From NCBI GenBank assembly GCA_964187785.1, contig OZ076409.1:310001-374000 (forward strand): a DNA stretch of 64,000 nt. The letters are read 5' to 3'. Positions 1-59,600 of the stretch are shown one piece after another. The stretch comes from Amphiscolops sp. MND2022. Lineage: Eukaryota. The notes under the pieces were generated by a model. That model had not been told where the DNA came from and made no database searches. It was given only the letters and a program-made list of their open reading frames with translations. The position numbers and the translations under genes were made by a program. The stretch's first letter is position 1; every line of letters begins with the position of its first letter.

Positions 1-72
1 AAGAGACTGCTCCTGAAGAAGAGACTGCTCCCGGAGGAGAGATTGCTCTTGAAGAAGAGACTGCTCTGAAAG
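1..72 (+). repeat. 18-bp coding tandem repeat (EEETAP-like) in the JmjC N-terminal region
   Basis: gaagaagagactgctc(c/t) units repeated about 4 times; the array runs off the window edge. Confidence 0.75.
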
Positions 73-1520
73 AAAAACAAAAGATACCGGAAATTGAACT
101 GCCGTATTTAGATTCCTTCAAATGGGGTTCAAACAATCGTTCCAAAGTTGGGTCAAAAAAGTTTTTGGATTTAATTCGAGGGAAAGTACCAGTCACCCAA
201 AGTTTCACTGTCAACAACCGCCAGGATTTCAAGAACCGAATGACGAGAAGTACACCATGTCCTGTAGTTTTGAGACAAGCTAGGGGCAAACTTGCTGGTC
301 TTGTTGTTCCTAGTGCCATACACGGTACCTTCCGTAAATTAACTGAGGGAATCCCTTGCAGCAGGAAAGTAAATGTGTGTTTTTCAGCACTCCAGGAAGT
401 GGAGAACAATATGACCTTGGCAAGTTTTTTGGGGCATCATGAAGACCCATTCCGCGAGCGAGATCTTCATCCAATGAACATCATCGACCTTGACATTGGT
501 CCGCATCAGAGGACAATGAAACACACATTTTCGATTCCAAACTTGATAAAAGAATATTCTCTGGGTCATACTTACACCTCAAGAATGGATCCCTCAATCC
601 GAGAAGAGTTTGACTTCACTGCTGGCATCAGCAATTACCTCTTGATGACTGAACAGGAAGCACAGACGGATTGGCATCAGGATTTCACCGGAAGTTCTGT
701 TTTTTACTTTTTGTTGAAGGGAAGGAAAGAATTTTTCATCGTGGAGCCAACCCAGAAAGCCCAACAGCGTTTTGACGAATGGCGAGAGAGTGAATGGAAA
801 AGGTTTGTAAAAAGGAAAACTCAGTTTTTACTTCAGTTTAGATTAATAATTGTGATCTTTTTCCTTATTGTTAAGTTGTAATTGGTTATGTGATTGTTGT
901 CAACAACTGTTAAAAGCTGAAGGTTATGACTGAAGATATTTCCAAAAAAGGGTTTGCTTTTCACGAGTTACAAGATACCTTCAAGGGGCTGAAACTTCTT
1001 AGAAAATTTCCGATGTTTAAAGTAGAAGTTAGTTCTCTCAACTTTGATTAATGTTGTTTTCAGCTCCACTTTCTTCGGTTTCCATCGAGATGTCACATGC
1101 TATCATATTGTGGTAGAAGAAGGAGACGCTATCTTCTTACCAAGCCAGTGGATTCACTTTGTTCACACCCCTGTTGATAGCATTGCTTATGCGTGTAACT
1201 TCATTATGGAAACCCACCTCCACCAGAGTGCCCTAGCCTTCAAGAAGGAGCTAGACGCAGGTTTGGCAAGACGTTTCTTGTTCCCAAACTTCCCAGGTTT
1301 GATAGTGATGCAGCTCTACATGGAATGGGCTAATAAAAACCGCGTGAGTCCTATCACGAAAGCCGCCATGCGTGAGATGCTGCAGATCATAAAAGCTGAT
1401 GAGCGACCAACTGGTAAAGAATTTCCGCTGGAAAATCCCTGGGCAGAGTTCTTGTATCGCTATGCAGCAACTGTCAGCGACTTGCATTGGGATGTAATTG
1501 AGGATTGGCTACAACGTTGA
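1..1520 (+). CDS. JmjC-domain histone lysine demethylase-like protein (KDM2/KDM7-PHF8 type), 5'-partial; exons <1-802 and 1064-1520
   Basis: Frame open from nt 3. GT 803..AG 1063 phase-2 intron joins ORFs 165-881 and 1044-1520 in frame (EWK-S-STFFG). Motifs QTDWHQDFTGSSVFYFLLKGRKEF and GDAIFLPSQWIHFVHTPVDSIAYACNF match the KDM2/KDM7 pattern TDFHxDFGGTSVWY..KG.K / FIPxGWIHAVxTPxDS; HxD...H triad intact. Confidence 0.9.
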
Positions 1521-1710
1521 GGAGAAACAACAGAGTCCAGAAAGTGCAGCTTGAGGAAGTCTTCAATTTCAGTTTCAAAACTTGATTTTCGGCTCTTTAT
1601 TGACTGATGAACATGCAAACAGTTTGCTTTCTTTATTTAGTGTCATGTGTTTTTTACTTACTGAGCACTTTTGCTTACTTTTTTTACTTACGTAGTAAAT
1701 ACTATACCAG

Positions 1711-2109
1711 CAGAGGTGTGATCGCTAACAATTTTATCGCAAATCGCTAACATCGCTAATGGCTTGATTTCATCGCTATCGCTACAACAAAATGGGTGGT
1801 TCGCTAACGCTATCACTATTTTAAAAACCTGATTTTCAGAAAGATCATATGAAAATTTCAGAATGTACTTTAAAATTAATAAATTTTGAAGTTTTGGGCA
1901 AATTGTACTTCGCCTACAAAGCCGGGCTCATCGAATAACTGTTCGAAAGGAAAAAGCCAAAATGATGTGTCAAGTTATTCGCAATAATTTTTTGCATTAG
2001 TTAATTTTGAATTTCTAGTTGAAAACATGTTCGCTAACGCTTTAATTTGTCGCTAACTATCGCTATCGCTAATTCATGCTGAATTGTCGCTATCGCTGTC
2101 ATACCTCTG
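1711..2109. mobile_element. hAT-type MITE (~400 bp)
   Basis: TIR cagaggtgtga / tcatacctctg (10/11); 8-bp TSD tataccag (1703-1710) / tatacaag (2110-2117); many subterminal tcgcta motifs. Confidence 0.85.
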
Positions 2110-2476
2110 TATACAAGGTATAGAAAAAAATCGAAAGTTTCTTATGATGAATGTACAAATGTTGTGGATTTTGAGAATTCAAGAGAACAATTGAGGCAAA
2201 AAATTCAGCCTCAACTCTGAATTTGCTCAATGATTCTTCCGACTTGTAGGCTACGTGTAACTTTGTTTTTGCTTAAATCAATTGTTACTACCTTACAGAA
2301 TCTGGAAGTATCAGTTGTACTAATGGTCTTTCGTAATTAAAGCATTTCTTCGGAGTGGTTTTTTAATTCAATGTTTTGTAAGCTTACAAATGTACATCGA
2401 GTTCACTAGTGAGATGGGGTTAGAAACGATTTCTTGTCTGTCAGGACTTCTTTAAACGTAACTTTCTAGGACTTGA

Positions 2477-5400
2477 ATGTCAACAAGAAGTGCTGCCCGC
2501 AAAGCAGAGCCCTGGAGCTCTTTTCTTTACTCAGACCCAGAAGGCTTCCAAGTGAAAACTGTACAGTTTGCAAACGGGGCCACGGGGCGAGGGCTTTTCG
2601 CTAACAGAAGTTTTGACGACAAAGAATTTTTGCTCACTTACTGGGGACCGAGAAGTACAACAAAAACGTCCAACTTCGACTATGTGATGGAACTGCAAGA
2701 AGGGAAACAAGCGGTATTCATTGACACTTCTGACGAAAAGAATTCAGGAATGGCTCGATTCATCAACGACAAGGACAGAGCAGTGGCTGCTAACTGTCGG
2801 ATGAAGAAGGTCACTGATGACCAAGGTAGAAACCATTGCATCTTCCTGGCAACTCGCCCGATTCAGTCTGGTTAGTTTGTTTTTTTTTACAAGACAGAAA
2901 GCCATTTAAGGCACTGAGTGTGAGTCCCACCAAGTTCCAGTGAAAAAGGTATCAGTGTCCCAGCAAGTGTTGATCAAAGCGTAACGATACATTGAACGGT
3001 TTTGCAGTAATACACACTTGGAAGTACCAGGCTATTATTTTACACTGCCTTAACGGTTTCGTAGCAAATTCCAGGCATTTTGCACTATGTTTCGTATGAG
3101 GTACCACCAAGGCTGAGTAAAAAACGGAATCTATGTCCCACCAATTCTGGTATCGTAAACGGCCTTATTTTTGCACGGCCTTAACGGGACATCTGAAAAT
3201 TGAAAAACACTGCCTATTGCCGAAGTTTCCACCGAAGTCATTTTTGTGAGACAATTAAAAGAAACAATTCTCAATTGATCATTCTTGTTTATCCGTTCAT
3301 ATTCACAGGTGAGGAGTTGCGCTATGATTATGGTTTTCCTCATGCAGAATGGAGACGAAATCCTCAAGCTCCGGGAACCAAAAGTAATATAGATAATATA
3401 GAAGCCGCTGATTCCAAAAACAAAATATCTCGTAATGTGGACGAGCCCTTCATAACAGTGACAAGGAAGAAGAAACTGGAAACTCTCTTCAAACAATCTG
3501 GACCTGAAAAAGAAAAACCCGGTGATTCCGAAAAAAGAATTTCATCAACAACGCAAAGAAAAGGAAAAGAATCTGAAGTTCCAGTGAAAGAGGTTTCCAA
3601 TTTGTATCCCAATCTTAGTGCGAAGAACCTCACAATTCCACTTCAGCCTGTGCCATTGCAATCATGCAACGAATCTAACAACATTGAGATACAAAACGCA
3701 GCGGACACAGTAGAAAAACCTCCTAACACATTACACAACAATGCGGGGGACACGGAACAGAGGATCTCAACAAAGTCATCGCAAAACCAATCTAGCAAAG
3801 TTGAGAAAAGCAAAACTACTGACACAGAAGAGAAGACTCTTAACCCGTTACGCAAAGAAGGGGACACGGAACTGAGGATCTCAACAAAATCATCGCAAAA
3901 CCAATCTAGCAAAGTTGAGAAAAACAAAACTACTGACACAGAAGAGAAGGCTCTTAACCCGTTACGCAAAGAAGGGGACACGGAACCGAGGATCTCAACA
4001 AAATCATCGCAAAACCAATCTAGCAAAGTTGAGAAAAACAAAACTACTGACACAGAAGAGAGACGGGGGGCCACGGAACCGAGGATCTCAACAAAATCAT
4101 CGCAAAACCAGTCTAGCAAAGTTGAGAAAAACAAAACTACTGACACAGAAGAGAAAGCTCCTAACCCGTTACGCAAAGACGGGGACACGGAACCGAGGAT
4201 CTCAACAAAATCATCGCAAACCCAATCTAGCAAAGTTGAGAAAAACAAAACTACTGACACAGAAGAGAAAGCTCCTAACCCGTTACGCAAAGACGGGGAC
4301 ACGGAACCGAGGATCTCAACAAAATCATCGCAAAACCAATCTAGCAAAGTTGAGAAAAACAAAACTACTGACACAGAAGAGAAGGCTCCTAACCCGTTAC
4401 GCAAAGACGGGGACACGGAACCGAGGATCTCAACAAAATCATCGCAAAACAAATCTAGCAAAAATGAGAAAAACAAAACTACTGACACAGAAGAGAAGGC
4501 TCCTAACCCGTTACGCAAAGACGGGGACACGAAACCGAGGATCTCAACAAAATCATCGCAAAACCAATCTAGCAATGTTGAGAAAAACAAAACTACTGAC
4601 ACAGAAGCGAAAGCTTCTAAACAACCACGGAAACCGAAGAATGTAACTAGAAGCATTGAAGCATCGTATGCCAAAATGACTGAACTAGAAGGAAGAAAAC
4701 CAAAAACACCTTTTGGAGCCAAAAACGAATGTATAATACCTCAGAAGGTAAGCACAATTTCATTAATTACCCGTTTAAGATTTGAAATTACTGACTTTTT
4801 GAAAAATCTTTTTTTGGTTGCGTTTGCACCTCAAAGTGAAAACAATTTGATGGCTTTCATGCACCTCATTCATTGAAGTGCCACAGGATTTTAAAATCAT
4901 GCTGGTAAAAGTTTTTTTTTTAATTGTTAAGTTTAATCATGTGAAAAGAATTTTGCATGTAAAAACAAACGCATTGTGAACGAATATAGATTATAATGCT
5001 TCATCATCTGGAAATAACCTCAATACAATTTTAGTCCAAAAGGAAGCCACTGTGGTTTTAGAGCGAAATATTTTTTTCGGAACTGTGTTGTTCCCGAAAG
5101 AATAAGATTCTCCCTTTTTAAGCAGTTGGAGCTCTCTGAGGGAACATCAAGGGCTTTGAGAATTCTCAACAAAGGACGCGAATACTTAACGCCGAACCCT
5201 GAGGAAGATTTGGATTCTGACTCAGCCGAAGAACACAGCAACATACCTGAACAATCAAGCGAGAGTTCCAGCGACGATTCGTCGTCGGAAACATCTGAAT
5301 CTTCAGGTGAAAGTTACATTGTTGATGAGGATGAAGGTAGCGAGGAACTGTCTTCAGAAGAAGAAACAGAAACTGCATCAACAGCTGAAAGAGCGCCAAG

Positions 5401-8400
5401 TACACCCAATAAAGTTTCATCAAATCAGACAGTGGTATTGGGAGAAGGCATTTCTCAGATCAGTGAGAGTAGTTATCAGACCGCACTAGCTTCAACGTCG
5501 TCTACAAGACCAGATGATGTTGCAAACACTATGGACGGCTATGATAACATTGAAGACGACATGCAACAATATGTCAACGCTAATTGTTCCGGAAAATGGA
5601 GATTCAACTCAAAGTATCTCAGGAAGATCCAGATTGTTGTCTCTGAAGGTAAATACAAAAAGAAGAAATGTTGTCTTTACTGTCCTTTCGAAGATATCAA
5701 AGATGCGACAATGGTCGCCAAATTACATCGCCATTTGCAATCATTCCATCAAAGAGAGCTCCGCGTCAGTAACCTTAGGCGAATAAATCTAGAAATAGAA
5801 GAATTAGAAGGAAGTAAGGAAATCGCGACAACTGAACGCGATTTGAGGAAACTTCATAAAGAGAAAGAGCAAACATACCGCTTGATCACATATGAAGGCC
5901 AGTACAAATATAACATCGCGGTTTTCAAAAAATGCATAGATACGAACAGATTCACTGACAAACTGATCGTAGTCAGGGACCCAACGGAAACGGAGAATCC
6001 AACAGCTGATAACTATGCTCCTTGTCCTGATTGTCTTGGCTTCTTCATGAGAAAAACCATGTACCGGCACAAACTAGACTGCCCGGCAGTTACCAAGTCT
6101 AGCCATAAGGAAGGAAAAAACAAAAACATCAAAGCTGCCATCTTTGCGTTGATGCTTGAAATCAAAGCAAATCATAACACACCATTCCAGGAATTCCTTT
6201 ATAACAATTTAAGAAACGATCCAGTTGCAGAACTAATACGAAATGACCCCCTTATAAAGTATGTTGGGGAATATTATTTCAACAAGCGAAAATCAGACGA
6301 AGGCTACAATCAGATCAGGGACAGAATGCGAGTAATGGCCAAACTTGTTCTCCAACTGGAATGCTCATATTTGATTGAACTAATCAGACCAGACATGTGG
6401 TCAAAAGTGAAAGAAGCGGTGTCAAAAAATTTTGCAAAATCCTACCAAGTGAAAATGGGATCGATTCTGAAAACAGCTGCTGCATTTCTGCAAAATCAAG
6501 CTTTCGTGTGGGAGAAGAAGGAGATATCTCAACAAGCTAAACAGTTTCAGAAAATTACTGACACTGAATGGGCTCAAATATCCGCACCTGCTAAATACGA
6601 GTAAGTTGGAACCATTCAAAAACTATTGAGGCAAATATTTACAAAAAGTATCGAATTTTGGCAAAAATTTGAAAAACAATTGTAGTTTCGGAGTGTGAGA
6701 AACGTAGTGGAACTTTGTCCAAAATAGTTACTTAGCCAATTTCAGTCGTTTTGCTCTAGTCCTTATAGCGGGCCCACCTTTTATGTCTCACTTAGTGTGC
6801 GTCCCACCAAGGCCAAGTAAAAGAGCGGGTTTATGTCCCACTAAGTCTGGTTTGCTCAACAATTCAAGTAAAAGAAGCCACAATGTAAAAAGTTGCTCCA
6901 CACGTTTTATTTAGGCCCCCTAAAACTAGCTGATAAACGTTTTCAGCCTTTTCTTTCCCAAATCTAATCACCTTGTGTTTTTCTAGGTTGGTCAAGAAGC
7001 AAAATGAGAGCATACATCTGGTTATTCCCACTACGGACATCCTTAAATTCCGGCAAAGCATTGGAAAAAAAAGTGCGAGAACTCCTCGAACTGACTAAGT
7101 ATAACTATGCCGAACTCAAACTAACTGTGATAGCTGATCTTGTTAGTTTCAACAAGAAGCGTGATCGTGAAGTTTCTGGAATCAAAAGAAGAGATATGAT
7201 ACTACAACGGAGTCTTGCCAGTGAACGAGCAAAGACAGCGGATAACGAGCTCGTGAAGCTTACAAAACTAGAGGAAAAGTTCGCAGAAGTCTACACACTC
7301 CTCCGACTTCCTGGTAAGGGAGGAAAAGTTGTCCCTGTGCTGGTGCCACCGGACACACTCAAACTTATTGATATCATGATAAATGATGACAACTTGAAAA
7401 ATGAAACGTACTTCTTCCAAACAGAAGGTGGAAAACTGCATTACCGGAGCGCTGAGGCCCTGAACAAGTTCGCTAAAGACTTTGAGCTGGAGAACAAACC
7501 TTTGTTCAGGTCAACGAAGCTTCGAAAGTATATGGCGACAGCAGCACAGTTTTTGAACTTACCACAGCACCAGAGGACTTGGGTTGCTGATTTTCTGGGT
7601 CATGACTTAAGGGTTCACGACAAGTATTACAGGATGCACACTGATGCCGTAAATCTAGCAAAAGTTACAAAATTGTTGTATATGGTCGACAGCGGTAAAC
7701 TCGAGGAAGCCTATTCGAAAGATCTTGACACAATTCAACCAACACTGGAGGATGGCGAGTTGGACGACTCGGTTAGTTTTGTAGTTTTTGAAAATATCAG
7801 TCCGGATTAAATAAAAAAAATAGGTTTTGATATTTGTACTATTGCAATAAAGAAAATCCCCTACGGGTCCGGGAATAATCTATCGAAAAAAAACAAAAAC
7901 CCACTGAAACATTACATGCTGGAATTCAATTTCAGTTATAATTATCATAAGTATAATCATAACATGCAATCCAACGCTAGTTTGTGAAGATGAAGATATT
8001 TGATTGGGAATTGGTTAAAAAGAAACGCAATGTGATCTAAAGTCGATTGCTTCAGAACTTGGTCGTCCAAAGTCAATGAACTCAATATTATTTGCTCCAT
8101 CTGGCAAATCTGGAAAACATTGATTTTCAAGAGATCAGTAACTTCGTGTCCAGTTTTAACATAGCACGCGGAAAAGAAATTCAAACCTATTCAGGAACTG
8201 TCATCAACTGGAAAGAATAGATTTTTTCTTACCTATTTTTTTATAAAGCCAACCATTGATTCTTCTGATTACTTCAGATAACAGTACAATCAATTTCATT
8301 TAATTCGTAACCGGATAATTCGGATCTTCGTTTATTTTCGTATAAAGTTTCTACTGAAGCAATACAAACCTCTTCTTCACATTGCGTTTCTTTTGGATCA

Positions 8401-9065
8401 TACTCCCAACGAAACAATACACATCTTAATTGTGCATAATACACATGCATCTAGGCAATGCAGGCCTATTCTCTATCACGTCGCGTTTCTTTTCAAAACT
8501 CTCTTTTCAAAACATCAAAGAGTATTGTAACTTTTAAACTATAAAACTTTTGAATTTAAAATTATAAAATAGTAACTTAGCCAAAACAAAGTCGTTTAGT
8601 TAGAAACAGGTTGACTTCATTTGAGTAATTGGAATTTGTTTTTTCAAGGATAACGAAACCGAAGTCCAAGACGATACCAATCATGCGAGATCCGGTGACG
8701 GCGCAGAAAATTCACTGAGAAGGTCCAAGGCCTCAACCTCGGGAAGCAAAAACAGTCTCTCACTTGGAACAGGCGATGGTGACACGGGTGACATTTCGGA
8801 TGAATTTAATACAACAATCAAAAGGAATCGAAAGAAAACTACTGGTGGTAAGAAAAAGCCTAAGCCTGGTGGTACTACACGACGAACATGGCCGCTGGAT
8901 CAAGAAAAAAGGCTGAGGAAACAATTCCGAGAAGAGATGAAGCAAGGACGACTGCCTGGCCGAGCAGTTTGTTTGGAGGCAATGAAAAAATATCCCCATG
9001 CTTCAAAGTGGCAGGATATCAAAGATAAAATACGGAACATGACCATCAGTGACGCAAGAAAATGA
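2477..9065 (+). CDS. SET domain - tandem repeat - acidic - Zn finger - tyrosine recombinase - Myb/SANT-like fusion protein; exons 2477-2870, 3309-4747, 5126-6600, 6987-7771, 8649-9065; one apparent frameshift near 7048-7072
   Basis: All four introns are GT..AG with matching phases (1,0,2,0). SET: GRGLFA, ARFIND..NC, IFLATRPIQSG|EELRYDYG. Zn fingers: CCLYC..LHRHLQSFH, CPDCLGFF..YRHKLDC. YR: FNKKRDREVS (R), GKGGKVVP (K), RSTKLRKYMAT (R), LGHDLRVHDKYY (H, Y). Last exon RRTWPLDQEKRL..LPGRAVC..KWQDIKDKIRN, stop 9063-9065, AATAAA 9203-9208. Confidence 0.85.
3746..4622 (+). repeat. 114-bp (38-aa) coding tandem repeat, about 8 copies
   Basis: Units start at 3746, 3860, 3974, 4067, 4181, 4295, 4409, 4523; the third unit is 93 bp (in-frame 21-bp deletion); encodes GDTEPRISTKSSQNQSSKVEKNKTTDTEEKAPNPLRKD. 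Confidence 0.95.
7960..8460. repeat. Degenerate inverted repeat / foldback element in the last intron of the YR gene
   Basis: aaaagaaacgcaatgtga (~8017) pairs with tcacattgcgtttctttt (~8377); attgcttcag (~8047) pairs with ctgaagcaat (~8354); ttgggaat pairs with actcccaa further out. Confidence 0.55.
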
Positions 9066-9564
9066 TCAGTTATCAGTGACAGGATAACAATAATTGAAGG
9101 ATAAAGTCATATGAACTTTCACTCGAGTATGAAACTTACCTTTTCAAACAAATCCAGGTTTTACGATACTTGACTTGAGTTGTAACAACGTTGTTTGGGC
9201 TGAATAAAAGATTTGCAATGACTTGGATTTTTAATTTACCAGTCAACTTGTTACTAGCTAACTGTGTACTGTCAAGAGTAAAGTATATGAAAATTATTCA
9301 GAAGGTGTACAAAAAATATGGGGTTACCGAGAAAATTTTATCTGTCACTTTGACTAAAACCAATGATTATCAGTACCTTGAGTCCATTTGAAAATTGCCC
9401 AAAGACTGGTCACCAGGGATTGAAAAATATTAAATGCGTGAACAATTAATAATTAAAGTCAATATAATGACTGCAATAAATTTCCAGCCAATTTCGTTGT
9501 GTCTTTGCTCTCTCCAATGACAGAGTTTCATTCGTAAAGAATAACATTCGGAAAACAGAATTAT

Positions 9565-10295
9565 GTTTTGAGGTCCCACCAATGCATGTCAATAAGTATT
9601 CTTGATAGCTGAAAATCGCTGAAAAGATTTTGTGTTAAGGTCCCACCAATGCATGTCAATAAGTATTCTTGATAGCTGAAAATCGCTGAAAAGATTTTGT
9701 GTTAAGGTCCCACCAATGCATGTCAATAAGTATTCTTGATAGCTGAAAATCGCTGAAAAGATTTTGTGTTAAGGTCCCACCAATGCATGTCAAAAAGTAT
9801 TCTTGATAGCTGAAAATCGCCAAAAAGATTTTGTGTTTAAGTCCCACCAATGCATGTCAATAAGTTTTCTTGATAGCTGAAAATCGCTGAAAAGATTTTG
9901 TGTTAAGGTCCCACCAATGCATGTCAATAAGTATTCTTGATAGCTGAAAATCGCTGAAAAGATTTTGTGTTAAGGTCCCACCAATGCATGTCAATAAGTA
10001 TTCTTGATAGCTGAAAATCGCTGAAAAGATTTTGTGTTAAGGTCCCACCAATGCATGTCAATAAGTATTCTTGATAGCTGAAAATCGCTGAAAATATTTT
10101 GTGTTAAGGTCCCACCAATGCATGTCAATAAGTATTCTTGATAGCTGAAAATCGCCAAAAAGATTTTGTGTTAAGGTCCCACCAATGCATGTCAATAAGT
10201 ATTATTAATAGCCAAGTTAAAGATTTTGTGTATGTCCCACCAAGGGAAAAGTGTGTACGTCCCACCTTATGCCCGTTTCGTGTACGGACCCACCA
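9565..10295 (+). repeat. 67-bp subterminal tandem array (10 copies plus degenerate terminal motifs)
   Basis: GTCCCACC at 9573, 9640, 9707, 9774, 9841, 9908, 9975, 10042, 10109, 10176, then 10234, 10259 and a variant near 10287; units nearly identical. Confidence 0.95.
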
Positions 10296-10310
10296 AGTGC
10301 TACTTCGTAC

Positions 10311-10313
<3 letters not shown>

Positions 10314-10367
<54 letters not shown>
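10314..10367 (+). repeat. (TG)27 microsatellite, probable target site of the YR element
   Basis: Perfect TG run directly after the last GTCCCACC-like motifs and a few nt before a host 3' splice site (AG 10374-10375). Confidence 0.95.
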
Positions 10368-10369
<2 letters not shown>

Positions 10370-10375
10370 CTTCAG

Positions 10376-13300
10376 GTAGAATAGACCCCACTTGGCACAC
10401 GGAGCTGACTAACCTCACCCACAGAACCCTCTCCAAACAGTCTCCCTCCAAACCACCCACAGCACGATCTCGACAAACAGGTGAGGTGACGTAGATAGAA
10501 GGAGGCTACACGATGCCATTCCATTCGGTTAATGAAATGGAAATAACAGCTGCTTATGAGGCGACGCTTTAAAGTACCTGCAGTGACGTGTGTCAATCAC
10601 ACTTTTATGTCACTTCAATTTAGTTACATTAATCTAGGACTTGCTTAAGCTACATGTATTTTCTTTGTATATACTGTTATGCTGTTAGTAAAACATTTCA
10701 TACGATAGACATCAGTTGAACAGGTATCATCCCATACACTCTTTTACATTACTTAATGACTAGGGATGGCATATTATGCTCTAAAAATCATCGTTTTATG
10801 CGCATACGTTTGCTCCATACAAGTCCAGATTACGCCATTTTATGCTCTAACGTTTTGTTTTATGCTACATACATGTACATGTCTTTCCTCAGCAAAAGAA
10901 CAAATGGCCTGAAGAAATATCTTAGAAAAGAAAAATGGAAGAACCATTTCAATTCCATTGAGGGCTTAACACTTATTTATTGCAAGGGTACAATGATGTA
11001 CAATATTTTCTTTAGTGAGTCGAAGCCTTCTTCCTCTTAAAAAGGCCTGGTATTGACTGAATACTCTTTCCACTTCCATTGCCACAACCGGTGCCTTCTG
11101 AAGAAGCAGTTTCTCCTGCAGACTGTACTCGTCGAGATTGTTTTCGTACAAACTTTTTAACCCCTCATTCTTGCCGAGCAAATCTTCCAGTTTTTCATCG
11201 TCCAGCATGTCAAAATCGAGCATTTCACGAATTTGGTTAAAACCATTCATAGCTTTCTCGACTGTACCATTTCTGGCTTCCAGTGAATTAGTAAGATCTA
11301 AAATTACCAAGTATTTGGCACCTAATTCAAGAAATTCACTTGCCAACTCCACCTTTTTTTCTGATAGTAAATTTTTCAATTTTCTCAGAGCCAACGAGTT
11401 ATCTTCTAACTCATCAATAACTGTTTTTCTCAAGGTTTGAAAGTATTCGAGGTAATATTTCACGGCCGAAAACCATGATCACGACCTAGTAATGAGAGGC
11501 TCGGGTGGGGCTGGACGTCAAAACCCGTAGTCTCAATGGTGCCTTTCGAAAAACCTTCATGGTCAAAAAAATCATGTCATTTACGACAGAAAATATTTCC
11601 ATTATTTTTTCCGCGACACGGTTGATATTGTGAGCGACGCAAATTACATGTAATAACTTTGGCATAAATACCTTGAGCGAACTAAGCGCTTTGATCATAT
11701 AACTGGATCCATCTGTTATACAAACAAAATATCATCGAAATGTAGCCCAAGTTTTTGAATGCTTTCGTGGACATATCTAGCAACGGTTGTACTGTTGGTG
11801 CGTTCTTGACCGACTGTTGGTGTAATGTTGCCGAGAAATCACTTTCCATGACCGAAAAATCCGACAACACAATTTGCAACATAGCGCACGGTGCAGTCCG
11901 TAGTCTCATCGAAAGATGTCCATACCTTCTGATCTCGCAGAGCTGCTTGTATCTTTGCCATTTTCTGGTCGTAGATGTTGGATGCGCTGTACGCGAAAAA
12001 ATGTTTGCTTGTGAATTTTGAGAAGATAATTTTTTCTTTTCTCTTTGTCCACTTTGTGGAGAGGAATATCCAGTTCAACAAACAACTCTGTAATTTCTTC
12101 TGCAAGTGTTTTTTCTTCGGCCACAGGTAAAAGCTGTTGCGATAACGGAGATGAAGATTTTCTTGATGCTTTTTTCCATTCATATGGTTGATAACAGTAG
12201 AACGCTTCTTAAAGTCAACTGATACTCCGCAATGTTTACATAGCATAACATTTCCATCCCTTGTAAAGCACTGAAATTCTCAAATAAATCCTCTGATTTT
12301 TACTGAATCGCTTTTTTGGATAGGCGGCATTGTTGTGTAGAGGGGTAAGAGCAATACGTACAGCAGCTGTGGAAAACGTTTTAGTGTGCGTCGGCGTGTC
12401 TTGCTGCACGCTGCACTTGTCACATTCATCACCAGGTTTCTATTGGACCGCTATCGCAACTCCTATTGCTGAGAAATTGAAATATATGCTTTAGAAAATA
12501 AAATTATTCTCTATGCCACAATGACTTGTAATTATGCCTTTTCTTGCTTTCTTATGCTTTAAGCATAGTATGCCATCCCTATTAATGACTCAGTCAGACT
12601 AAGCACTTAGCCAGAGATATTGCTAATGACAAAGAGGAAAGAACCCGATTGGGTAAATCTGTTGGAAAGACAACATGATATAACGAACGACTTAGCGAGC
12701 AGAAACTAAATATCTCCGTTTTGGAGGCGACTGATAGCTAGGGGGGACCAACAATAGCACTAACAAACGTTTTTATAGCGCTATTAAATAGCACTCAAAA
12801 AACTTTAAAATAGCACTAAAAATAGCACTTAAAATTGATTTTTTTGTATTTTACTCGCCCAAAAACTATTGAAAAAACAATTACTTGGATGCATATTGTT
12901 AATTATTCAGATGAATTAACAAAGCCAATTACATAATCAGGCAAATTTTCGTCTGCAAAGTTTCTATCTGATGCCAAAAGTTTTCTCAATTTTGAAAATG
13001 ACCTCTCAATAACAGCATCGGACGCTGGAGATCTTTGTAACAGAGATATAATGTTTGGGTCACAATCATCAGGTGGATCAATGAGCTTTTGTAGATCAGG
13101 CATTTTCGAAAGTCGGCTTTTCAGGTAAACAAGTATATCTTTTGCAGCTTCTTCGTTTTCGATAGTTGTTACCCAAGACTGGATTTTTTGATAACCTTGT
13201 AACTGAGTGCATTCGTGGTGTTCTAACTGAAGTATAAGTGCAGGTAATTCTGCGTACACTCGAGAAATTTCAACAAGCTGTGCGGCAACCCCGGGTGCTG

Positions 13301-53600: not shown

Positions 53601-56600
53601 TTCCGAATTTGAACTTCCGAATAATTCGTCGTAAAATGAGTCGAACCAAATGAAACAAATATGGATTTTTTCCGTTAATTCCCCCCAACAAACAATCACA
53701 AACCTTTTATTCTTTGAAATATTGGTAACAGACTATCAATTTTTGGTGAATTAAAAACTCTAACTGCAATTCAAATCAATCGCTCGAAATGTATACAGTG
53801 GGGGAATTGACAGAAAGCTGTTCTTTCATTTGCAAACCAGTGTATAAAAACGAAGTAATGGAGTATTATAGTTACACATTTGAACCTATTGCACAAAAAT
53901 TTGAAATCAGTGCACGCAGATTGAAAGACGTGTTAAACAAGTGTTAAAAAGACTAACACCAAAAAGTGTGTTTCTGTTTTGGAGTGACTATCATCAAAAA
54001 TTCTGTTTCCGTTCTACGTACTCCTGTAAAAAGTGTGTTTCTGTTTTCGAGTGACTAACATCAAAAATTCTGTTACTGTTTTTGCTTGACTAATGTCAAA
54101 AAGTCTGTTTTTGTTTTCGAGTGACTATCATCAAATTGTCCAATTCTGCTTTTTACCGTGACTAACCTACAAAAGTCTCTATACTTCTATTTTCCAACTT
54201 TTTATCAGAGAAAAATAGAGGGAAATTGAATTGAAATACTATTTTTTGAAAGGAACAAGAACAATAAAGATCCCTAGAATGATGATTCAACGGAACTTAG
54301 ACAAGGTGAAAGAACAAAGCTTGAACTCCCTGCCAAGTTTAAAAAATAAACATCAGCCCACCTCTGGCTTTTATGAAGTGCAAAGCGAATGACGTTTAAT
54401 CAACTGGTCAGTTATTATAGTATATGAAGGATATGAGGTTTATTGAAAACAAGGACACTGTTGCTTTAGGAAACGACCGAATTGCATACCTGAATAGTAT
54501 TTGAGCGTCTTTCTGCAGTTCGGTACTCGAATTTAATGTGAAAATACACAAAATATTGTTCACCAAAATTGTACCAAAAAGGAGTAATTTGGCATTTCTT
54601 GCGTTGGTGGAAAACTTCAGGCAGTATAATTACGGTACTACGTGAAACATTGGGTGTGGTAATTGTCTTGACTGGCTTAATTAACGATGAGACGCGATAA
54701 TAATGCAAAGAACATTAAGGGTGTAGTTTGTACTTCAGATTATCTGACATGGGGTTATTTGGCATTGGGAAAAGGTCCTTAATAACTTGGGATATACGCG
54801 ATCTGTTTCGTTCAAACTTTGTGAAAAGAATTGTTTAAGGGTTTTGGGCTATTCTCCCAAATTTCGTTTTCCTATGACCCGTGGAAGTGGAGATTCAGGC
54901 TCATGCCAAACTACACCCCAAAAAACCCCTCAGCTGGTGGTATTTGGTATGTGCTAAAATACAACTGTGGGGTCATTTGGCACTGTGTTATATTATAATA
55001 ATAATGATAATAATATTAATAATAATAATAATAATAATAAAAATAATAATAATAATTGAATTTATCTGGTGATACATAATTGACATACAAATATCAAATC
55101 AAGTTACAATAAAAATACACCAGAAAAGACTCCCTAAGGGTTTACGCCCGCTGGAAGGGAGCCTTAGCGAATTAAAAACAACAGTGTATGATTAACATGA
55201 TTAATCATACTGACTAAACCTGTAGTCAAATGAGAAAACTCTCAGACAACAATGAAAAAAAAACGAGACGGAAGAAAAGTATCGGAAAGAGAACAGAAAA
55301 ATACCTTCAGTACTTGACATTTGCTTCATCGGCAGTGGACGAGCTAAGCCCTAGTATCTAAAGCGATTCAACTCCCAACCAACTAAAACGTAGTTATTTC
55401 GGGATAAACGTCAAAAAAAGGTGAAAAGACCCGAACTCAGAGATCATTTTGGTGAAATTTGCCGATGCAACCGCCCTCTACTTACAGCGGAATGTGCCAT
55501 GTAAACCTCAGAGAGGCTTACATAGAGGACATGGACCGTCTAACTGAGACCATGCAGGGGGAAGCATCGGAATTTAGTGGAATACTCATGGGTTAACCCA
55601 TGAATATTCCACTAATGCATTCTTTTCCAAAAATGAGAAAGCTACAATAAATGTAAGGTGGAGAAAAATAATAGCACGGTCAATTAAAGCTTTAAAAGAG
55701 GGTAGCCAAGAAGTAAACTGAATAAATGTGAAGGATATTAAAGAAAAATCCTTTGGCTCGTAGGTAGGCAGTTACTTGCTCAAAAAGGTTCCAAGCTCCT
55801 GAGCACAGCAGAGAAGAGGCTTTATTAGAGTCCGCTTTGGGGACTTCATTGCTTGGCTTTCCAGCTTCACATTCACCGTTAGCAGGGGAAGTTTCACTGA
55901 AGTTCATAAACAAACCTGACAAGCTCCGTATTCCCGATTAATAGCTTCCGAGGAACCTATGACACAACACTTTGAGCGCGTCTTCTGAAAAGTTTCCGAG
56001 GTCATCATTTTCCGGTAAAACAGACCAATGCTTAAGTTTGTTATAAAGTTTTAGGGGCACCTATTGAGAGCGACTGTCGATACATTTTATTGTAGGAGAC
56101 AGGTTCGATCGCGAGCTCGAGTTTCTTATTCCTCAAGTAGTAATCGCTTTGGGATACAGGTTTCAGGATGTCGTTAAGGACTTGGACAGGATGACCAGTT
56201 GACAGCGAGGCTACTATGAACTTGAACAGTTCATAGACATGAAATTCATGAACGGTAGGAAGTTCATTTTCTATCATTAGAGAGTCAACGCTTGCAAATT
56301 TCTCAAGGAAAAACATAGTTCGCAAAATTTTCTTTTGTAATGTATATATAGGGCTGAGAATGGAAAAAGACGTACAGCCGTATATCAGAACACCATATTG
56401 GACGAGTGGATTCACATGTAATTTATAGTAAACCAGTAACTGAGATTCGGCCAGAAGATCGCGAGAACGACTAACAGTTGATGGCAAAAGTTCAACTGCT
56501 GTTTGATTTTAGCTACATGATCTTTGAAGCAGATAGAATCGTCAATAATAACACCTAAATACTCCAGATTGTGCTTTATTTCAATCGCCAGTGAGCTCAA

Positions 56601-59600
56601 GTGCAAATCAGATTCTGACAACTTGTTAACGATTATGGCTTTTGATTTGTCCAGGTTGCATTTCAGCTTATTTCATCCAATTGTCGACTTTTGAGAGGGC
56701 TTAACTCAGTGTATCTTGGTTGCCGTTTACTATTTTTTCAAAAATATTTGGGTCGTCTGCAAATGATGTAATATTAGAGTTCGCGACATCAGGTAGGTAG
56801 ATCATTGATGTAGTGGAGAAACAGCAATGTCCAAGAACTGACCCTTGTGGAACACCACAAGCTACACATCGTAAAGATTTATGGTTCTCAATTTGCAGGA
56901 ACTGATAGCGACTCTGTAGGAAGGAAGACAATAGGAAGAAGATAGGGCCCCGGAAACCATATCGATGGAGTTTATCAAATAGGATCTTATGGTCGAGAGT
57001 GTCAAATGCTTTTCTTAAATCAAGGAAAACGCAGACAGAAGGAATTTTCAAAAACTTAGCGTGTCTCACTTCTTCGACCACACAAGCCAGAGCGTCGATG
57101 GTTTTGCGTTTTTTACGAAAACCGAATTGACTATCGTTAAGGATTTGGAATTTATCGATGAATCTCATCACTCTCGTGTAAATTATGCGCTCGATTACTT
57201 TATCGAGAACTGGTAACAAAGAAATTGGGCGGTAATTAGAGAATTTCTTTGCCCTCCTTATAGATGAGAACCACCTTAGCTACTTTTAGGAGATCGGGAA
57301 GCAACCCTGCTGTAAACAGCGATTTATTAGAATGGTCAAAGGTCCAATCAACGAATTTGAACTCATTTTCAAGAGCAAGGAGCTTACACCATCAGGACCG
57401 GATAATGTTTTACCTTTCATTTCATTCAATACGTTCTGGATTTCAAGCCCATCTGTTTGTCGCAGAAACATAGATTGTATATGACAAGGGATGTTTGAGA
57501 TCCGAGTGTTTGATTGAATGGTATCATGGAGAGCTGGACCGATGTTAACGAAAAAGTCATTGAAACTGTCAACGTAGGCCTGGCTCATGATTGTTGGAAA
57601 AATGGGTCTTTGCATTTTATCAATAACTTCATTGAGGTTTCTATGAAAACTGTTGCTGTCATGCGCACATTGTGGGAAAGATGACTGAACGAATTCCTTT
57701 TTTCGGTTTTTGAGGTGCGTTTTAACAATTTCTGTATTGTACAAAGGTGGCGCGTTTAATTTCGTCACTTTTGCTGCGGCAATTCTCAAGATAGAGCTGG
57801 TCACGTTTATTGATAAGTCTTTTGCACTTATTATCTAACCAGGGTTTAGTATTGATCACTATTGTTTTTTTCAGGTGCGACTTTGTCAGCAGCCGTAAAA
57901 ACAATTTGTATCAATTTATTGAAACCATCTTCAAGATTGACCAATTCCCAATTGGTTTGACAACAAAAGTAATTTAGCAGGAAAAGGTATCCGCGTTGTT
58001 GGCATTCAAGGTTCTTGTAATTTCTATACGAACACGTGTTTTTGGAAACATTAATAAAGTCTCAAATTTGGTCCAAACAAAAAAGTGATCAGTTATAGTA
58101 GAATGATAGACTTTTCTCGTTGACACTGATAAATTACTGTAAATATGATCTATGCAAGACTTGGAATCTGTTTGCTGTCTTGTGATATCAGGAGGGCTGC
58201 ATAATTTCAGAGCATGACTCGATATGATATCCAACAATTGGATGGAGTATTTCGTTTGTTTCAGAAGATCTATGTTAAAACCGCCCATGATTATTATATT
58301 CCTGCCATTTTCGCACACTCTTAGGCACTCTTCGGCCAACCATTCTAGATACTTAGGTTCTTTGACTTCCATATGACATCTGTATGTTACGCCAACAAAT
58401 TGTTTAATAGGAGATAAAATTTCAACAAGAAGCCATTCACGAACTGTGTCGTTCAGTGCGACACGATAGCTGAAGTTTTTGTCTAACCATAAAGCTACGC
58501 CGCCTCTTTCACTGAACGAGCGATTACAAGCTATCAATTCATGATAACCTTTGAGATCAAATTTTTTCAGATCACTGCTATCATTAAGCCATGTTTCAGT
58601 TGCACCAATGATACTAGGTTTTATATTCTCATTCGCCAAGAAGGCTTCGAGTTCAACGAAATGGCTGTTTAAGCATCTTACGTTAGCATTCAGGATGTTC
58701 AGTTTACTAAAATGGCTGCCCTCATCATGAAACTTAATGGTCTGATTCATTTGAGGGTAAGAGTTCGTTGTTATTCTGAAAACTACCAGTTGCAATCGGC
58801 GTTTCTTGAGGATTCAGATTGCTTTTATTCACTGGTGATTTGCTGTGAAGATGGTCCAATAACCTATCTAGCTCATTATTGTCTTCACAAGCACGAATTT
58901 TTTCATAAAGTTCTTCGAGACATTGGCGGGTCAATATTTTCCAGAGGTCTTTTTGGCATTCGTTGAACTCCTTTGAACAAAGGGTTGGAGGAGGGTTTTG
59001 GATATTGCGGTCGAACGCCATGGAAGACTTAGACTTTGTAATTACCAAGGATATAGCATAAACCGTCCTGAACGGAATCCACATCGGGCAGTCAAGATGT
59101 AGAGGGCAGTTAAGAGACGCGATGGTGGATTCAATGTACGAAGTGTGGTGGCCACAAATTCACGAACAGTGGCGTCAGCAAAAACTTGCAAAAAATGTCA
59201 ACAAGCCGGTCATAACGTTAAATTGATACAGCAGAGCGGGTTTGCCACTATTAGAAAATCGAAACAAGTAAACGAAGTAGCCTTTTATTTTATGGCATCA
59301 ATCACGGTCAAAGAAAATGGAAAGAAAATGAGGCCAAAGAAAAAAGAAAAGAGCCTGTCCGAAAAAAAATGAAAACGAGAAGCACCACGATTGATGCGGA
59401 TTTACATAAATCAAGCAAGTCCATGTAAAGTACGTACTGACCAAGGTTGCTTCATGAGGAGCGAATTATGTCCAAATTTCGTTTTTTTTTCTATTTGATA
59501 AGTCATTATTTGTTCATAAAATTAGTATTATTACTAAATTAACAATTGAAGATATTCACTTTCACTCAAATAAACCCATGATATATGAAACTGATTCAAG

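Follow-up and report, generated by a model that had tools for sequence, protein, structure and literature searches.

The window, by which we mean the whole stretch of 64,000 nucleotides from Amphiscolops sp. MND2022 analysed here, opens with the right arm (1-10368) of a very large DNA element. These first 10 kb belong to a high-copy mobile element, with a tyrosine recombinase (YR) as its probable mover. With a probability of about 0.65, we consider this a giant YR element that carries a JmjC gene and a SET-YR fusion gene, the products of which would act on chromatin at the element's own copies. The earlier note had placed both genes on one mobile element, and the copy-number and linkage counts bear this out. 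The element is not a unit of about 10-20 kb; the repeat measures 50-58 kb instead and carries two RING-finger genes besides.

Copies, ends and internal motifs

Dispersed copies of the element number at least about 100 in the genome, the young ones being 98-99.6% identical, and the whole right arm matches the window at 98-99.6% in five other copies. The repeat unit of the window copy spans 50.4-58.1 kb (about C1:262,300/270,001 to C1:320,368). Negative numbers denote positions to the left of the window; the window copy is 99.5% identical to C7 from -36074 to 10330. Farther left, C1:270001-273925 recurs over its full length at no fewer than 13 element loci, and the probes C1:262001 and C1:250001 lie outside the family. 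The left terminus was not reached, which leaves the element without the border of a discrete insertion on that side. Extension to the left did recover the GGTGGGAC motifs predicted there, in inverted orientation, and stopped short of the terminus that they were expected to mark.

The octamer GTCCCACC characterizes the element, with 43 occurrences inside it versus 0 in 53.6 kb outside, and with 15 observed in the window versus 0.74 expected. A subterminal array on the plus strand (9560-10212) consists of 9.7 copies of a 67-bp unit with GTCCCACC in each, and modules of about 85 bp bearing the same motif lie at internal points in both orientations. The right terminal region (10213-10313, plus strand) holds two more GTCCCACC and one GGACCCACC. 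It ends in ...CTTCGTACACA and is identical in five of the six copies compared; the C10 copy breaks off at GGACCC and continues into an incomplete repeat of the terminus. The right end is sharp, with ...CTTCGTACACA(TG)n at 10313-10368 and then unique DNA. The tract itself is (TG)27.5 in the window copy (10314-10368) and about 4-27 units long in other copies. All six copies diverge beyond ...CTTCGTACACA(TG)n, the sequence past the tract being different in each, and in the window the roughly 400 bp directly past it are single-copy. At the true right end, the TG tract is preceded by the 9-mer TTCGTACAC. The two copies inspected at both borders of the unit as then defined showed no target-site duplication, and our searches found neither an empty site nor a circular junction for the element.

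Long open reading frames are absent from most of the 50 kb, and a scan of 46 kb detected no reverse transcriptase. Pfam scans took in ORFs with a minimum length of 60 or 70 aa between -36100 and 0, plus nine selected ORFs of the arm, and the only domains found in the scanned ORFs were RING, C2H2, JmjC and SET. Both RING-finger genes lie in the left arm. This arm varies between subfamilies, among them a 26.8-kb RING-paralogue subfamily, and the recombinase end is kept.

The internal modules in both orientations, together with kb-scale indels between copies at a (TAG)n tract and at -36074, imply that the 50 kb may be an accretion of several units. In order to account for this, one could restrict the autonomous element to a unit of about 20.5 kb reaching from (TAG)n (-10377 to -10144) to (TG)n (10314-10368). 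On this view a CryptonV-like Crypton, associated with microsatellites and equipped with JmjC and SET-YR, would have been joined on the left by 30-38 kb of further related units, most of them non-autonomous, which accreted in tandem and then spread with it. We regard this as possible but doubtful. The unit is indeed bordered by microsatellites on both sides, and PMC8869645 ascribes insertion into such repeats to some CryptonV families. Its subterminal arrays are inverted, with three units of about 230 bp containing CTTGGTGGGACC at -9260 to -8650 and ten opposite units of 67 bp containing GGTCCCACCAA at 9560-10212. Although the C9 and C8 copies have extra DNA exactly at (TAG)n and a different sequence immediately to the left, with distances between the RING-B and JmjC genes of 23.0 kb (C9) and 20.6 kb (C8) versus about 13.5 kb, the REF, C7 and C10 copies are about 99.5% colinear across the tract. 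The left arm is present in all six copies studied, and RING-B is kept upstream in 53 of 63 young JmjC copies, on the opposite strand and 13.2-34.7 kb away. At -15400 an R-type module ends in TTCGTACAC with an L-type module 60 nt further on, resembling a junction of units. However, (TAG)n and (TG)n differ, which insertion into a single microsatellite would not produce.

The JmjC and SET-YR genes

Two genes, separate from each other but read in the same direction and both interrupted by introns, occupy the conserved right arm. The JmjC gene has a large exon that reaches into the window from the left (to 802, plus strand), with a putative acceptor at -452; a first coding exon with an ATG was not found. 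This exon encodes a C2H2-like finger, an acidic stretch from an 18-bp repeat (1-70) and the N-terminal half of the JmjC domain, with HxD at 675-683. After an intron at 803-1063 (GT-AG, phase-2 junction), the last exon (1064-1520) supplies the distal His for iron binding (1155-1157) along with the stop codon (1518-1520). The splice junction (..EWK-S-STFFGF..) agrees with the continuous homologues P0207 and P0208. The protein would be about 570-590 aa long (569-593 aa), and its ORF is open in all six copies.

Among solved structures the best sequence matches are the KDM7, PHF8, PHF2 and KDM2A demethylases (E 4e-11 and 1e-10; PDB 3kv9, 3k3n, 4qwn, 3ptr). The His (675-677) and Asp (681-683) of HxD align with the demethylases' own residues, as does the distal His and as do T, Y and K, which we take to be the 2-oxoglutarate ligands of PHF8. 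Judged by alignment, the JmjC domain of the element is thus KDM7/PHF8/KDM2-like with all iron and 2-oxoglutarate ligands present, and this fits a predicted active enzyme. The earlier note had described an intact HxD...H triad in a gene upstream of SET-YR and co-directional with it, and the alignment of all ligands confirms it. The protein differs from KDM7 and KDM2 enzymes in having none of their PHD finger, CXXC, F-box or LRR domains and, instead, the N-terminal finger and the acidic tandem repeat. It also scores below the Pfam JmjC cut-off, and its gene is multicopy and element-borne.

The SET-YR gene has five exons between 2477 and 9065 on the plus strand, with GT-AG introns throughout and matching phases. 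Exon 1 (2477-2870) supplies the ATG and the N-terminal part of SET (33.2 bits against Pfam SET, cut-off 22.4) and gave 150 scored matches among 560 candidates. Exon 2 (3309-4747) completes SET (GEELRYDYG) and continues into a coding 114-bp tandem repeat (3746-4611), the number of which varies by copy, so that the exon measures 1325-1760 nt in six copies. Exon 3 (5123-6600), with an acidic, Ser-rich stretch and a Cys/His-rich middle part, matched no Pfam family. Exon 4 (6987-7771) encodes the tyrosine-recombinase catalytic domain and exon 5 (8649-9065, stop 9063-9065) a basic tail, whose W..E..W..IK helical motif is also found at the C-terminus of distant homologues. In three of six copies the joined ORF runs through to the final codon without a break (1465-1610 aa), which argues against a splicing model that came about by chance. 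In the window copy, the JmjC ORF is intact and the SET-YR gene is frameshifted: its ORF breaks at aa 1141 because of a +1 frameshift in an A8 run (7065-7072) that is A7 in 10 of 12 other copies. The window copy would therefore depend on other copies.

The window YR protein matched none of the Pfam YR families, and sequence searches against solved structures gave no significant match. In an AF2 model (pLDDT 82.4), exon 4 folds as a tyrosine-recombinase catalytic domain. The top Foldseek matches of this model are XerH and XerA (E 1.5e-3, prob 1.00), VIA-align superposes it on XerH with Z 12.8 (171 aligned, rmsd 3.3), and all 50 entries listed by VIA-align are tyrosine recombinases or type IB topoisomerases. 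In P0151 numbering, R58, K110, H205 and Y214 are invariant and R179 nearly so; the His position of the usual HxxR box is a nearly invariant Thr (T176). We found 2383 YR homologues. A SET domain is present in 11 of the 28 long ones scanned, near the N-terminus in 8 of those, and the six SET-bearing homologues looked up are all fish or frog proteins. Going by these protein records, SET-YR fusions are widespread. The fish and frog proteins P0056, P0029, P0143, P0078, P0112 and P0006 have an N-terminal SET with N-D and a C-terminal YR that is 27-37% identical to that of the window, and some share the C-terminal tail motif. They are predicted 'uncharacterized proteins', known from protein records alone.

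Linkage of the two genes

The JmjC gene lies 0.96 kb upstream of SET-YR on the same strand. Its exon 2 gave 150 scored matches among 1019 candidates, 136 of the 150 with a stop-free last exon, and a SET exon lies downstream in 122 of these matches, at 1340-1440 bp in 121. Seen from the recombinase, whose exon gave 138 scored matches among 780 candidates, a listed JmjC is found upstream on the same strand in 111 of 138 (4.9-10.6 kb away, median 5921 bp). The earlier note had proposed counting this co-occurrence within 10 kb and in the same order. It had named as adverse outcomes a single-copy JmjC, an element terminus between 1520 and 2477, and SET-YR copies that never carry JmjC; the gene is multicopy, most YR matches carry it, and six copies run colinearly through 1520-2477 at 98-99.6% with no boundary. 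The spacer segment at 1700-2115, some 400 bp formerly called a later MITE, does not retain that status: all 40 scored matches are about 100% identical, every match checked sits between JmjC and SET of an element copy, and the repeat tool found no inverted ends. We therefore rejected it as a later insertion in the window copy and assign it to the master sequence of the family.

Possible action on chromatin

In the reading we favour, the YR would move the element Crypton-fashion, by excision to a circle and then site-specific integration without target-site duplication, and it would dock at the subterminal arrays and at the modules that bear GTCCCACC. Chromatin at or near the copies would be the target of the JmjC protein, of the recombinase-tethered SET and perhaps of the two left-arm RING-finger proteins. 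Their likeliest purpose would be to oppose repressive lysine methylation or to reset it, keeping the element expressed and mobile. This anti-silencing role is inferred, as is a PHF8/SETD8 pairing of substrates.

In the SET domain, GxG and the Tyr of ELxxDY are both kept, which fits a predicted active enzyme. Its NH motif reads N-D across the clade, N-H being usual, and the window SET departs further (NDKD versus NDEH-type), which makes methyltransferase activity uncertain. SET, possibly catalytically dead, and JmjC might then read or mark chromatin, choosing or preparing integration sites, or might modify the recombinase or other non-histone proteins. Such a role would suit a SET that is covalently fused to the recombinase, with a non-canonical NH motif, over a wide clade, and a JmjC without the reader domains that set PHF8/KDM7 substrate choice. 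Nothing is directly against it; the kept SET motifs and JmjC ligands nevertheless fit active enzymes, and we consider it unlikely.

We find it somewhat harder to believe that JmjC, with or without the RING genes, is a captured host gene carried passively with no role for the element. Large elements are known to pick up host genes, and other multicopy JmjC ORFs are present in this genome, so that capture of this kind may happen often and incidentally. With an identity of about 99% among the young copies, the open ORFs in them carry little information. The dN/dS of JmjC against eight diverged copies is 0.51-0.81, a modest signal of constraint in which all eight comparisons share the window copy and five of the eight diverged copies have stops or frame breaks. 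However, the association spans subfamilies, since a listed JmjC accompanies 8 of the 16 YR matches with less than 90% identity. Homologues elsewhere that are 42% identical share the same non-host-like layout (finger, acidic repeat and JmjC, no PHD or CXXC), keep the ligands and group into clusters with 18 members and 4 members. The JmjC protein of the element shares little identity with human KDM7/PHF8, and it scores too low for the Pfam JmjC cut-off.

Comparison with known systems

Cryptons are typically a few kb long and are proposed to move by circle excision and site-specific integration without target-site duplication, and the earlier note associates SET-YR fusions with animal CryptonV-type elements. 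Crypton DNA transposons were reportedly described by Goodwin et al. in 2003. Like them, the element is a DNA element with a tyrosine recombinase as its sole recombination enzyme. Unlike them, it is at least 50 kb long, with its YR fused to SET, long subterminal arrays, dozens of internal copies of one 8-mer, and JmjC and RING genes as cargo. Its YR also lacks a Pfam Phage_integrase or DUF3504 match and has Thr for the His of HxxR. Some Cryptons carry an extra gene, such as a C48 peptidase in oomycete CryptonF, according to Kojima & Jurka (2011; PMC3212892). CryptonV is named in PMC5753468 and PMC4455052, and a passage of PMC8869645, citing Kapitonov & Jurka (2012, Repbase Reports), gives it a cnidarian origin and some microsatellite-specific families. 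That passage mentions neither JmjC cargo nor a 50-kb size, and the likeness drawn here is one of description. It consists in (TG)n at the right junction in six of six copies and (TAG)n at an internal border.

Starships are not known to exceed a few copies per genome, unlike the element with its hundred or so, or more, near-identical copies. Its YR belongs to a different clade with no DUF3435-type match, is transcribed towards its terminus, unlike that of Starships, and sits in a host that is not a fungus. The likeness to the fungal YR giants Starship and Enterprise, as portrayed in PMC10104507 and PMC12134995, lies in the very large size, in the cargo, in a YR gene near one end and in a recombinase end that is kept although the other arm varies. 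An endogenous, YR-using large DNA virus or virus-transposon hybrid is very improbable: the size, the YR and the microsatellite at the junction recall crustacean endogenous nimaviruses, whose YRs go with insertion in microsatellites (PMC10871703), but neither capsid, polymerase and packaging genes nor any other hallmark of a virus turned up in the scanned ORFs. Spliceosomal introns interrupt the genes of the element, and long ORFs are missing from most of the 50 kb.

The element would join other selfish DNA that encodes an epigenetic writer or eraser. Known cases are TET/JBP with fungal KDZ transposons, retrotransposon DNA methyltransferases and the chlorella-virus SET, which are DNA-modification enzymes or a lone viral SET. 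Our literature searches found no description of a JmjC of lysine-demethylase type and a recombinase-fused SET on one transposon, nor of a SET-YR element with JmjC cargo or of 50-kb size. If our reading is true, a selfish element would encode its own writer and its own eraser of histone lysine methylation marks.

JmjC and SET-YR genes as parts of one repeat family

The earlier note on this DNA had proposed that a single mobile element holds both a JmjC gene of the KDM7/PHF8/KDM2 type and, just downstream, a gene in which a SET domain is fused to a tyrosine recombinase (YR). The copy-number and linkage analysis bears this proposal out. Three tests had been named as possible refutations, and none of the three refuted it: the JmjC gene is multicopy rather than single-copy, no terminus lies in the interval 1520-2477, and most SET-YR copies are accompanied by a JmjC gene. 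In the organism's own genome (a eukaryotic assembly of 1.07 Gb), the last exon of the JmjC gene gave at least 150 scored matches among 1019 candidates (136 of the 150 free of stops), SET exon 1 gave at least 150 among 560, and the YR exon gave at least 138 among 780 (111 of the 138 free of stops). These matches are spread over all 13 large contigs and many small ones, and wherever the JmjC matches were checked they lay inside copies of the element, i.e. this is not a single-copy host orthologue. The SET exon is found downstream, on the same strand, of at least 122 of the 150 listed JmjC matches, at a distance of 1340-1440 bp in 121 cases. Seen from the other side, a JmjC match lies 4.9-10.6 kb upstream (median 5921 bp) of at least 111 of the 138 listed YR matches. 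Divided by identity of the YR match, a JmjC match was listed for at least 56 of 61 at 95% or more, at least 47 of 61 at 90-94%, and at least 8 of 16 below 90%.

The whole right arm of the element (window 1-10368), including the interval 1520-2477, is colinear at 98-99.6% in five other copies, which we denote C6, C7, C8, C9, and C10. About a hundred or more copies have this level of identity, each some 50 kb long; at that copy number and size the family would amount to several megabases within the 1.07-Gb genome. The family is recently amplified. A 416-bp piece that the earlier note had taken for a later MITE was ~100% identical in 40 of 40 scored matches; it belongs to the family's own sequence and is not a later insertion in this copy.

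The JmjC gene

The 3' two-thirds of the JmjC gene occupies window 1-1520 on the plus strand. Its large exon extends past the left edge of the window, with the frame open from a putative acceptor at -452 (the window is G000:C1:310001-374000, and negative positions lie to its left on the same contig, C1), and measures 1255-1327 nt from that acceptor among copies. A GT-AG intron (803-1063, plus strand) joins it to the last exon (1064-1520, plus strand); a first coding exon was not found for this gene. The best solved-structure matches of both exons were chains of KDM7, PHF8, KDM2A, and PHF2 (E-values of 4e-11 and 1e-10). Alignment with these proteins places the HxD motif, the distal His, and the residues T, Y, and K at corresponding positions; the HxD...H iron triad is present, and the T, Y, and K positions are those that we take to be 2-oxoglutarate ligands. 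The Pfam JmjC score of the window's gene is below the cut-off. Pfam detected no PHD, CXXC, F-box, or LRR in the JmjC gene, the only accessory match being a weak C2H2 finger upstream, which precedes the JmjC domain together with an acidic 18-bp repeat. The catalytic ligands are common to the element's JmjC and the KDM2/KDM7 (JHDM1/PHF) proteins, whereas the reader domains of the latter, namely PHD in KDM7, PHF8, and PHF2, and CXXC, PHD, F-box, and LRR in KDM2, are absent from the element.

The JmjC reading frame is open in all six copies (569-593 aa). Values of dN/dS were 0.51-0.81 against eight diverged copies, in eight non-independent comparisons, and five of the eight copies have stops or frame breaks; the gene appears to be under mild constraint. 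Coding tandem repeats were observed at window 1-70 (18-bp units, JmjC gene) and 3746-4611 (114-bp units, SET-YR gene), and the number of units in both genes varies among copies that are otherwise ~99% identical.

Among relatives of the JmjC protein, 40 of similar length came from ENA contigs, with 40-93% identity. Two full-length homologues, P0207 and P0208 (595 and 613 aa, 42% identity, from clusters of 18 and 4 members), which are encoded on contigs of 23-28 kb, have the same layout as the element's JmjC, of finger, repeat, and JmjC domain only, with the ligands kept. An ESM Atlas search with the JmjC exon returned generic JmjC/cupin clusters only. We also observed two further multicopy families of JmjC-type ORFs in the own genome, both above the Pfam JmjC cut-off (e.g. 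G000:C1:6292791-6293099 and C1:26460262-26460573). One has ORFs of ~207-213 aa scoring 34-41 bits and accounts for about 37 of the 62 listed matches, and the other has ORFs of 206 aa scoring 29.4 bits, with 11 listed matches. Repeat-borne JmjC genes may be a recurring feature of the Amphiscolops sp. MND2022 genome.

The SET-YR gene

The SET-YR gene follows the JmjC gene on the same strand after a spacer of 956 bp. It has five exons (2477-2870, 3309-4747, 5123-6600, 6987-7771, and 8649-9065, plus strand), all with GT-AG boundaries and matching phases. Exon 1 alone scores 33.2 bits against the Pfam SET cut-off of 22.4. Exon 2, whose length is 1325-1760 nt among copies, holds the end of the SET domain followed by the coding 114-bp tandem repeat, and when the two exons are joined the GxG and ELxxDY-type motifs of SET are present. 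The profile match is as expected of SET-domain lysine methyltransferases; the NH motif, however, is N-D instead of the canonical N-H (NHS/C), a reading shared by the window and 7 of the 7 SET-YR homologues aligned.

No Pfam family was found for the YR exon (exon 4), exon 3, or exon 5. Searches of the YR against solved structures gave nothing relevant with the single sequence and, with a profile, XerH as the best but not significant match (E-value of 0.76). An AF2 model of exon 4, built from an alignment with 24 relatives, had a pLDDT of 82.4. Foldseek against the PDB placed XerH and XerA best for this model (E-value of 1.5e-3, probability of 1.00), and in a second structural comparison all 50 of the 50 listed entries were tyrosine recombinases or type IB topoisomerases. 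The best structural match was XerH, with a Z-score of 12.8 and an rmsd of 3.3 over 171 aligned residues. In the alignment of 25 YR sequences (numbering of the protein P0151), R58, K110, H205, and Y214 are invariant and R179 is nearly so, and the usual His position of HxxR is a nearly invariant Thr (T176). Only one of the 25 sequences touches Pfam Phage_integrase, and weakly (E-value of 0.0019).

The spliced reading frame is open to the final codon in three of the six copies (C7, C9, and C8; 1465-1610 aa, the spread being due to repeat number). The window's copy has a break at aa 1141, and the C10 and C6 copies are broken elsewhere in the frame. The defect of the window's copy stems from positions 7065-7072, which are an A8 run compared with A7 in 10 of 12 other copies, and it may be a homopolymer error of the assembly.

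An exhaustive search found 2383 YR relatives at E-values of 0.001 or less, including longer full-length SET-YR proteins, none of which were scored by a word-index search. Among 28 relatives scanned with Pfam, which were picked among the longer ones, 11 have a SET domain, in 8 cases near the N-terminus. The six SET-bearing relatives that were looked up are 'uncharacterized proteins' of pipefishes, seadragon, carp, loach, and poison frogs. Since SET-bearing relatives occur in fishes and frogs, the SET-YR fusion is widespread.

Left arm and size of the element

A (TAG)n tract at -10377 to -10144 was first taken as the left end, since two of six copies have different sequence on its left side. It was abandoned as a terminus in view of the position of RING-B, a multicopy RING-finger ORF at about -14200 (C1:295799-296065, minus strand, opposite to JmjC) that belongs to the same repeat unit: it lies upstream of the JmjC gene in all six studied copies, and 13.2-34.7 kb upstream in at least 53 of the 63 young copies, those with JmjC identity of at least 98%. 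The colinearity of the window's copy with C7 as far as -36074 also speaks against it. The point -36074 itself, where the sequence reads CATAGACCC..., was rejected as a left terminus on three grounds. The apparent flanks are of two types, each common to several copies; in the window's copy the C7-type flank is also present, displaced by 1.17 kb to the left; and the adjoining 3.9 kb on that side (C1:270001-273925) is itself repeated, in full at no fewer than 13 element loci. The break is an indel between two variants and not an end; from -36074 to 10330 the window's copy and C7 are 99.5% identical. Probes taken from C1:262001-262300 and C1:250001-250300 fall outside the family. Because C1:270001-273925 is repeated in the family and the probe C1:262001-262300 is not, the unit is estimated at 50.4-58.1 kb in the window's copy, with the left terminus placed within C1:262,300-270,001.

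RING-B has 65 listed copies of at least 94% identity. A second RING-finger ORF, 57% identical to RING-B, is fixed 19.7 kb further left (about -33900; C1:276069-276308, minus strand). Further minus-strand ORFs neighbour the RING ORFs, and no other domain was recognised there; their arrangement suggests spliced genes. In a subfamily of five copies, the ORF located 26.8 kb upstream of JmjC is a RING paralogue of 64% identity, and therefore the left arm is variable and the JmjC/SET-YR arm is kept.

Pfam was run on ORFs with a minimum length of 60 or 70 aa from -36100 to 0 and on nine selected arm ORFs, and recognised only RING (twice), C2H2, JmjC, and SET. Neither reverse transcriptase nor RNase H nor any other polymerase was found in these ORFs, and a viral origin is considered very unlikely, no viral hallmark domain being among the matches in the same set.

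Signature motif and internal architecture

The 8-mer GTCCCACC occurs 43 times (35 on the plus and 8 on the minus strand) from -40000 to 10313, and 0 times in the 53.6 kb to the right of the element. Within the window there are 15 occurrences, compared to 0.74 expected. The motif has three settings: a 67-bp subterminal array (9560-10212), an inverted array of ~230-bp units (-9260 to -8650), and a module of ~85 bp, present in either orientation at a number of internal points and also inside introns.

The module at -15400 ends in TTCGTACAC, which is the 9-mer that, at the true right end, stands directly before the TG tract, and an oppositely oriented module follows 60 nt later. This pair looks like a junction between units. 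Such a junction would fit the tandem accretion of related units onto one of ~20.5 kb, reaching from (TAG)n to (TG)n, with the whole now spreading as a block. The presence of RING-B beyond the (TAG)n tract in all six studied copies and in most young ones speaks against an end of the element at that tract, and we consider the accretion possible, though we lean towards one giant element in which docking sites are spread. The long (TAG)n tract inside the unit (C1:299624-299857) is a place where copies differ by kb-scale insertions, of about 2 kb in the window's and C6 copies and about 7-9.5 kb in C8 and C9. Its appearance is that of an insertion or recombination hot spot.

Right end and flanking sequence

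The right terminal region is common to all six copies; five of them reach ...CTTCGTACACA, and C10 is cut slightly before the terminus. Next comes, in 6 of 6 copies, a (TG)n tract with a length of about 4 to 27 units, beyond which the sequences diverge. The first ~400 bp after the window's (TG)n occur nowhere else in the genome, and for this single-copy right flank no empty paralogous site of the insertion was found. No (TG)n matching the right junction was present at any left border seen. Beyond the right end of the C10 copy (G000:C10:2892001-2902000), the last 1.56 kb and 0.68 kb of the right terminal region recur as two partial tandem repeats. Both of these end in a (TG)n tract of their own, and the first junction is located within the terminal GGACCCACC motif.

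In the host flank, 13 bases past (TG)n, window 10377-10390 reads TAGAATAGACCCC, which resembles TAGAATAGACTTT after the internal (TAG)n and CATAGACCC at the -36074 breakpoint; the likeness may be due to chance or to a preferred recombination word. A cluster of minus-strand ORFs of 130-170 aa at 10966-12279, one with a weak C2H2/zf-met-like match, may be left over from another transposon just beyond the right end of the element, and it is relevant to the question of the flank being a host intron. Further to the right, 56041-59159 on the minus strand is a fragment of a non-LTR retrotransposon unrelated to the element, with an apurinic-type endonuclease ORF (57974-58810, minus strand) and a reverse-transcriptase ORF (56701-57276, minus strand).

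Comparison with known systems

The absence of reverse transcriptase and LTR separates Cryptons from DIRS/Ngaro, and according to the earlier note SET-YR fusions occur in animal CryptonV-type elements. The modelled fold of the window's element is that of a YR, with a nearly invariant Thr at the His position of HxxR, so that its catalytic set agrees in part with that of Cryptons; the element is dispersed and multicopy, no reverse transcriptase was found in the ORFs scanned, and its right flanks are different in 6 of 6 copies. According to Kojima & Jurka 2011 (PMC3212892), Cryptons have no TIRs, some carry a peptidase, and short direct repeats of 4-6 bp at the two ends are the sites on which recombination acts. 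CryptonV, from cnidarians, has microsatellite-specific families according to Kapitonov & Jurka 2012, as cited in PMC8869645; in our element (TG)n is found at the right junction in 6 of 6 copies, with no matching tract at any left border seen. YR-driven insertion in microsatellites is also described for endogenous nimaviruses in PMC10871703. A DUF3435-type (Starship captain) Pfam match was found neither for the YR exon at E-values of 0.1 or less nor in the 25 aligned YR relatives at 0.05 or less. A term search of a 2019 review of giant eukaryotic transposons (PMC6431247) gave no hit for Cryptons, histones, or demethylases. In the literature searched we found no description of a transposon with JmjC and SET-YR genes; Repbase entries may describe such elements.

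Interpretation

The family is a recently amplified, very large DNA element with a conserved right arm that carries a ligand-complete JmjC gene and a SET-YR gene, with a sharp right terminus, and with a signature motif spread through it. We classify it as a Crypton-like SET-YR element, here giant and JmjC-carrying. The YR would mediate excision as a circle and integration, and the GTCCCACC modules would serve as docking sites. The JmjC protein, the tethered SET, and perhaps the RING proteins would act on chromatin at the copies of the element, the most plausible effect being to counter silencing. With a rough probability of 0.2, the element would be an animal-type counterpart of the fungal Starships: a family of YR-mobilised, cargo-carrying elements of at least 50 kb, in which a lysine-methylation writer tethered to the recombinase, a JmjC eraser, and RING E3 ligases, all encoded by the conserved core, would reprogram chromatin at the element's own copies through docking on GTCCCACC modules. 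In this way some hundred near-identical copies would escape silencing and stay mobile.

Transposons are usually viewed as targets of silencing by histone methylation rather than as sources of the writers and erasers of such marks. In this recently amplified family, a JmjC demethylase-type gene and a recombinase-fused SET belong to the fixed gene content. Provided that the enzymes are active, the family would offer a directly testable case of a mobile element that edits its own chromatin, and would show, as it occurs in nature, a chromatin enzyme joined to a site-specific recombinase. Through its size and modular construction, the element also bears on the existence of very large cargo-carrying YR elements outside fungi.
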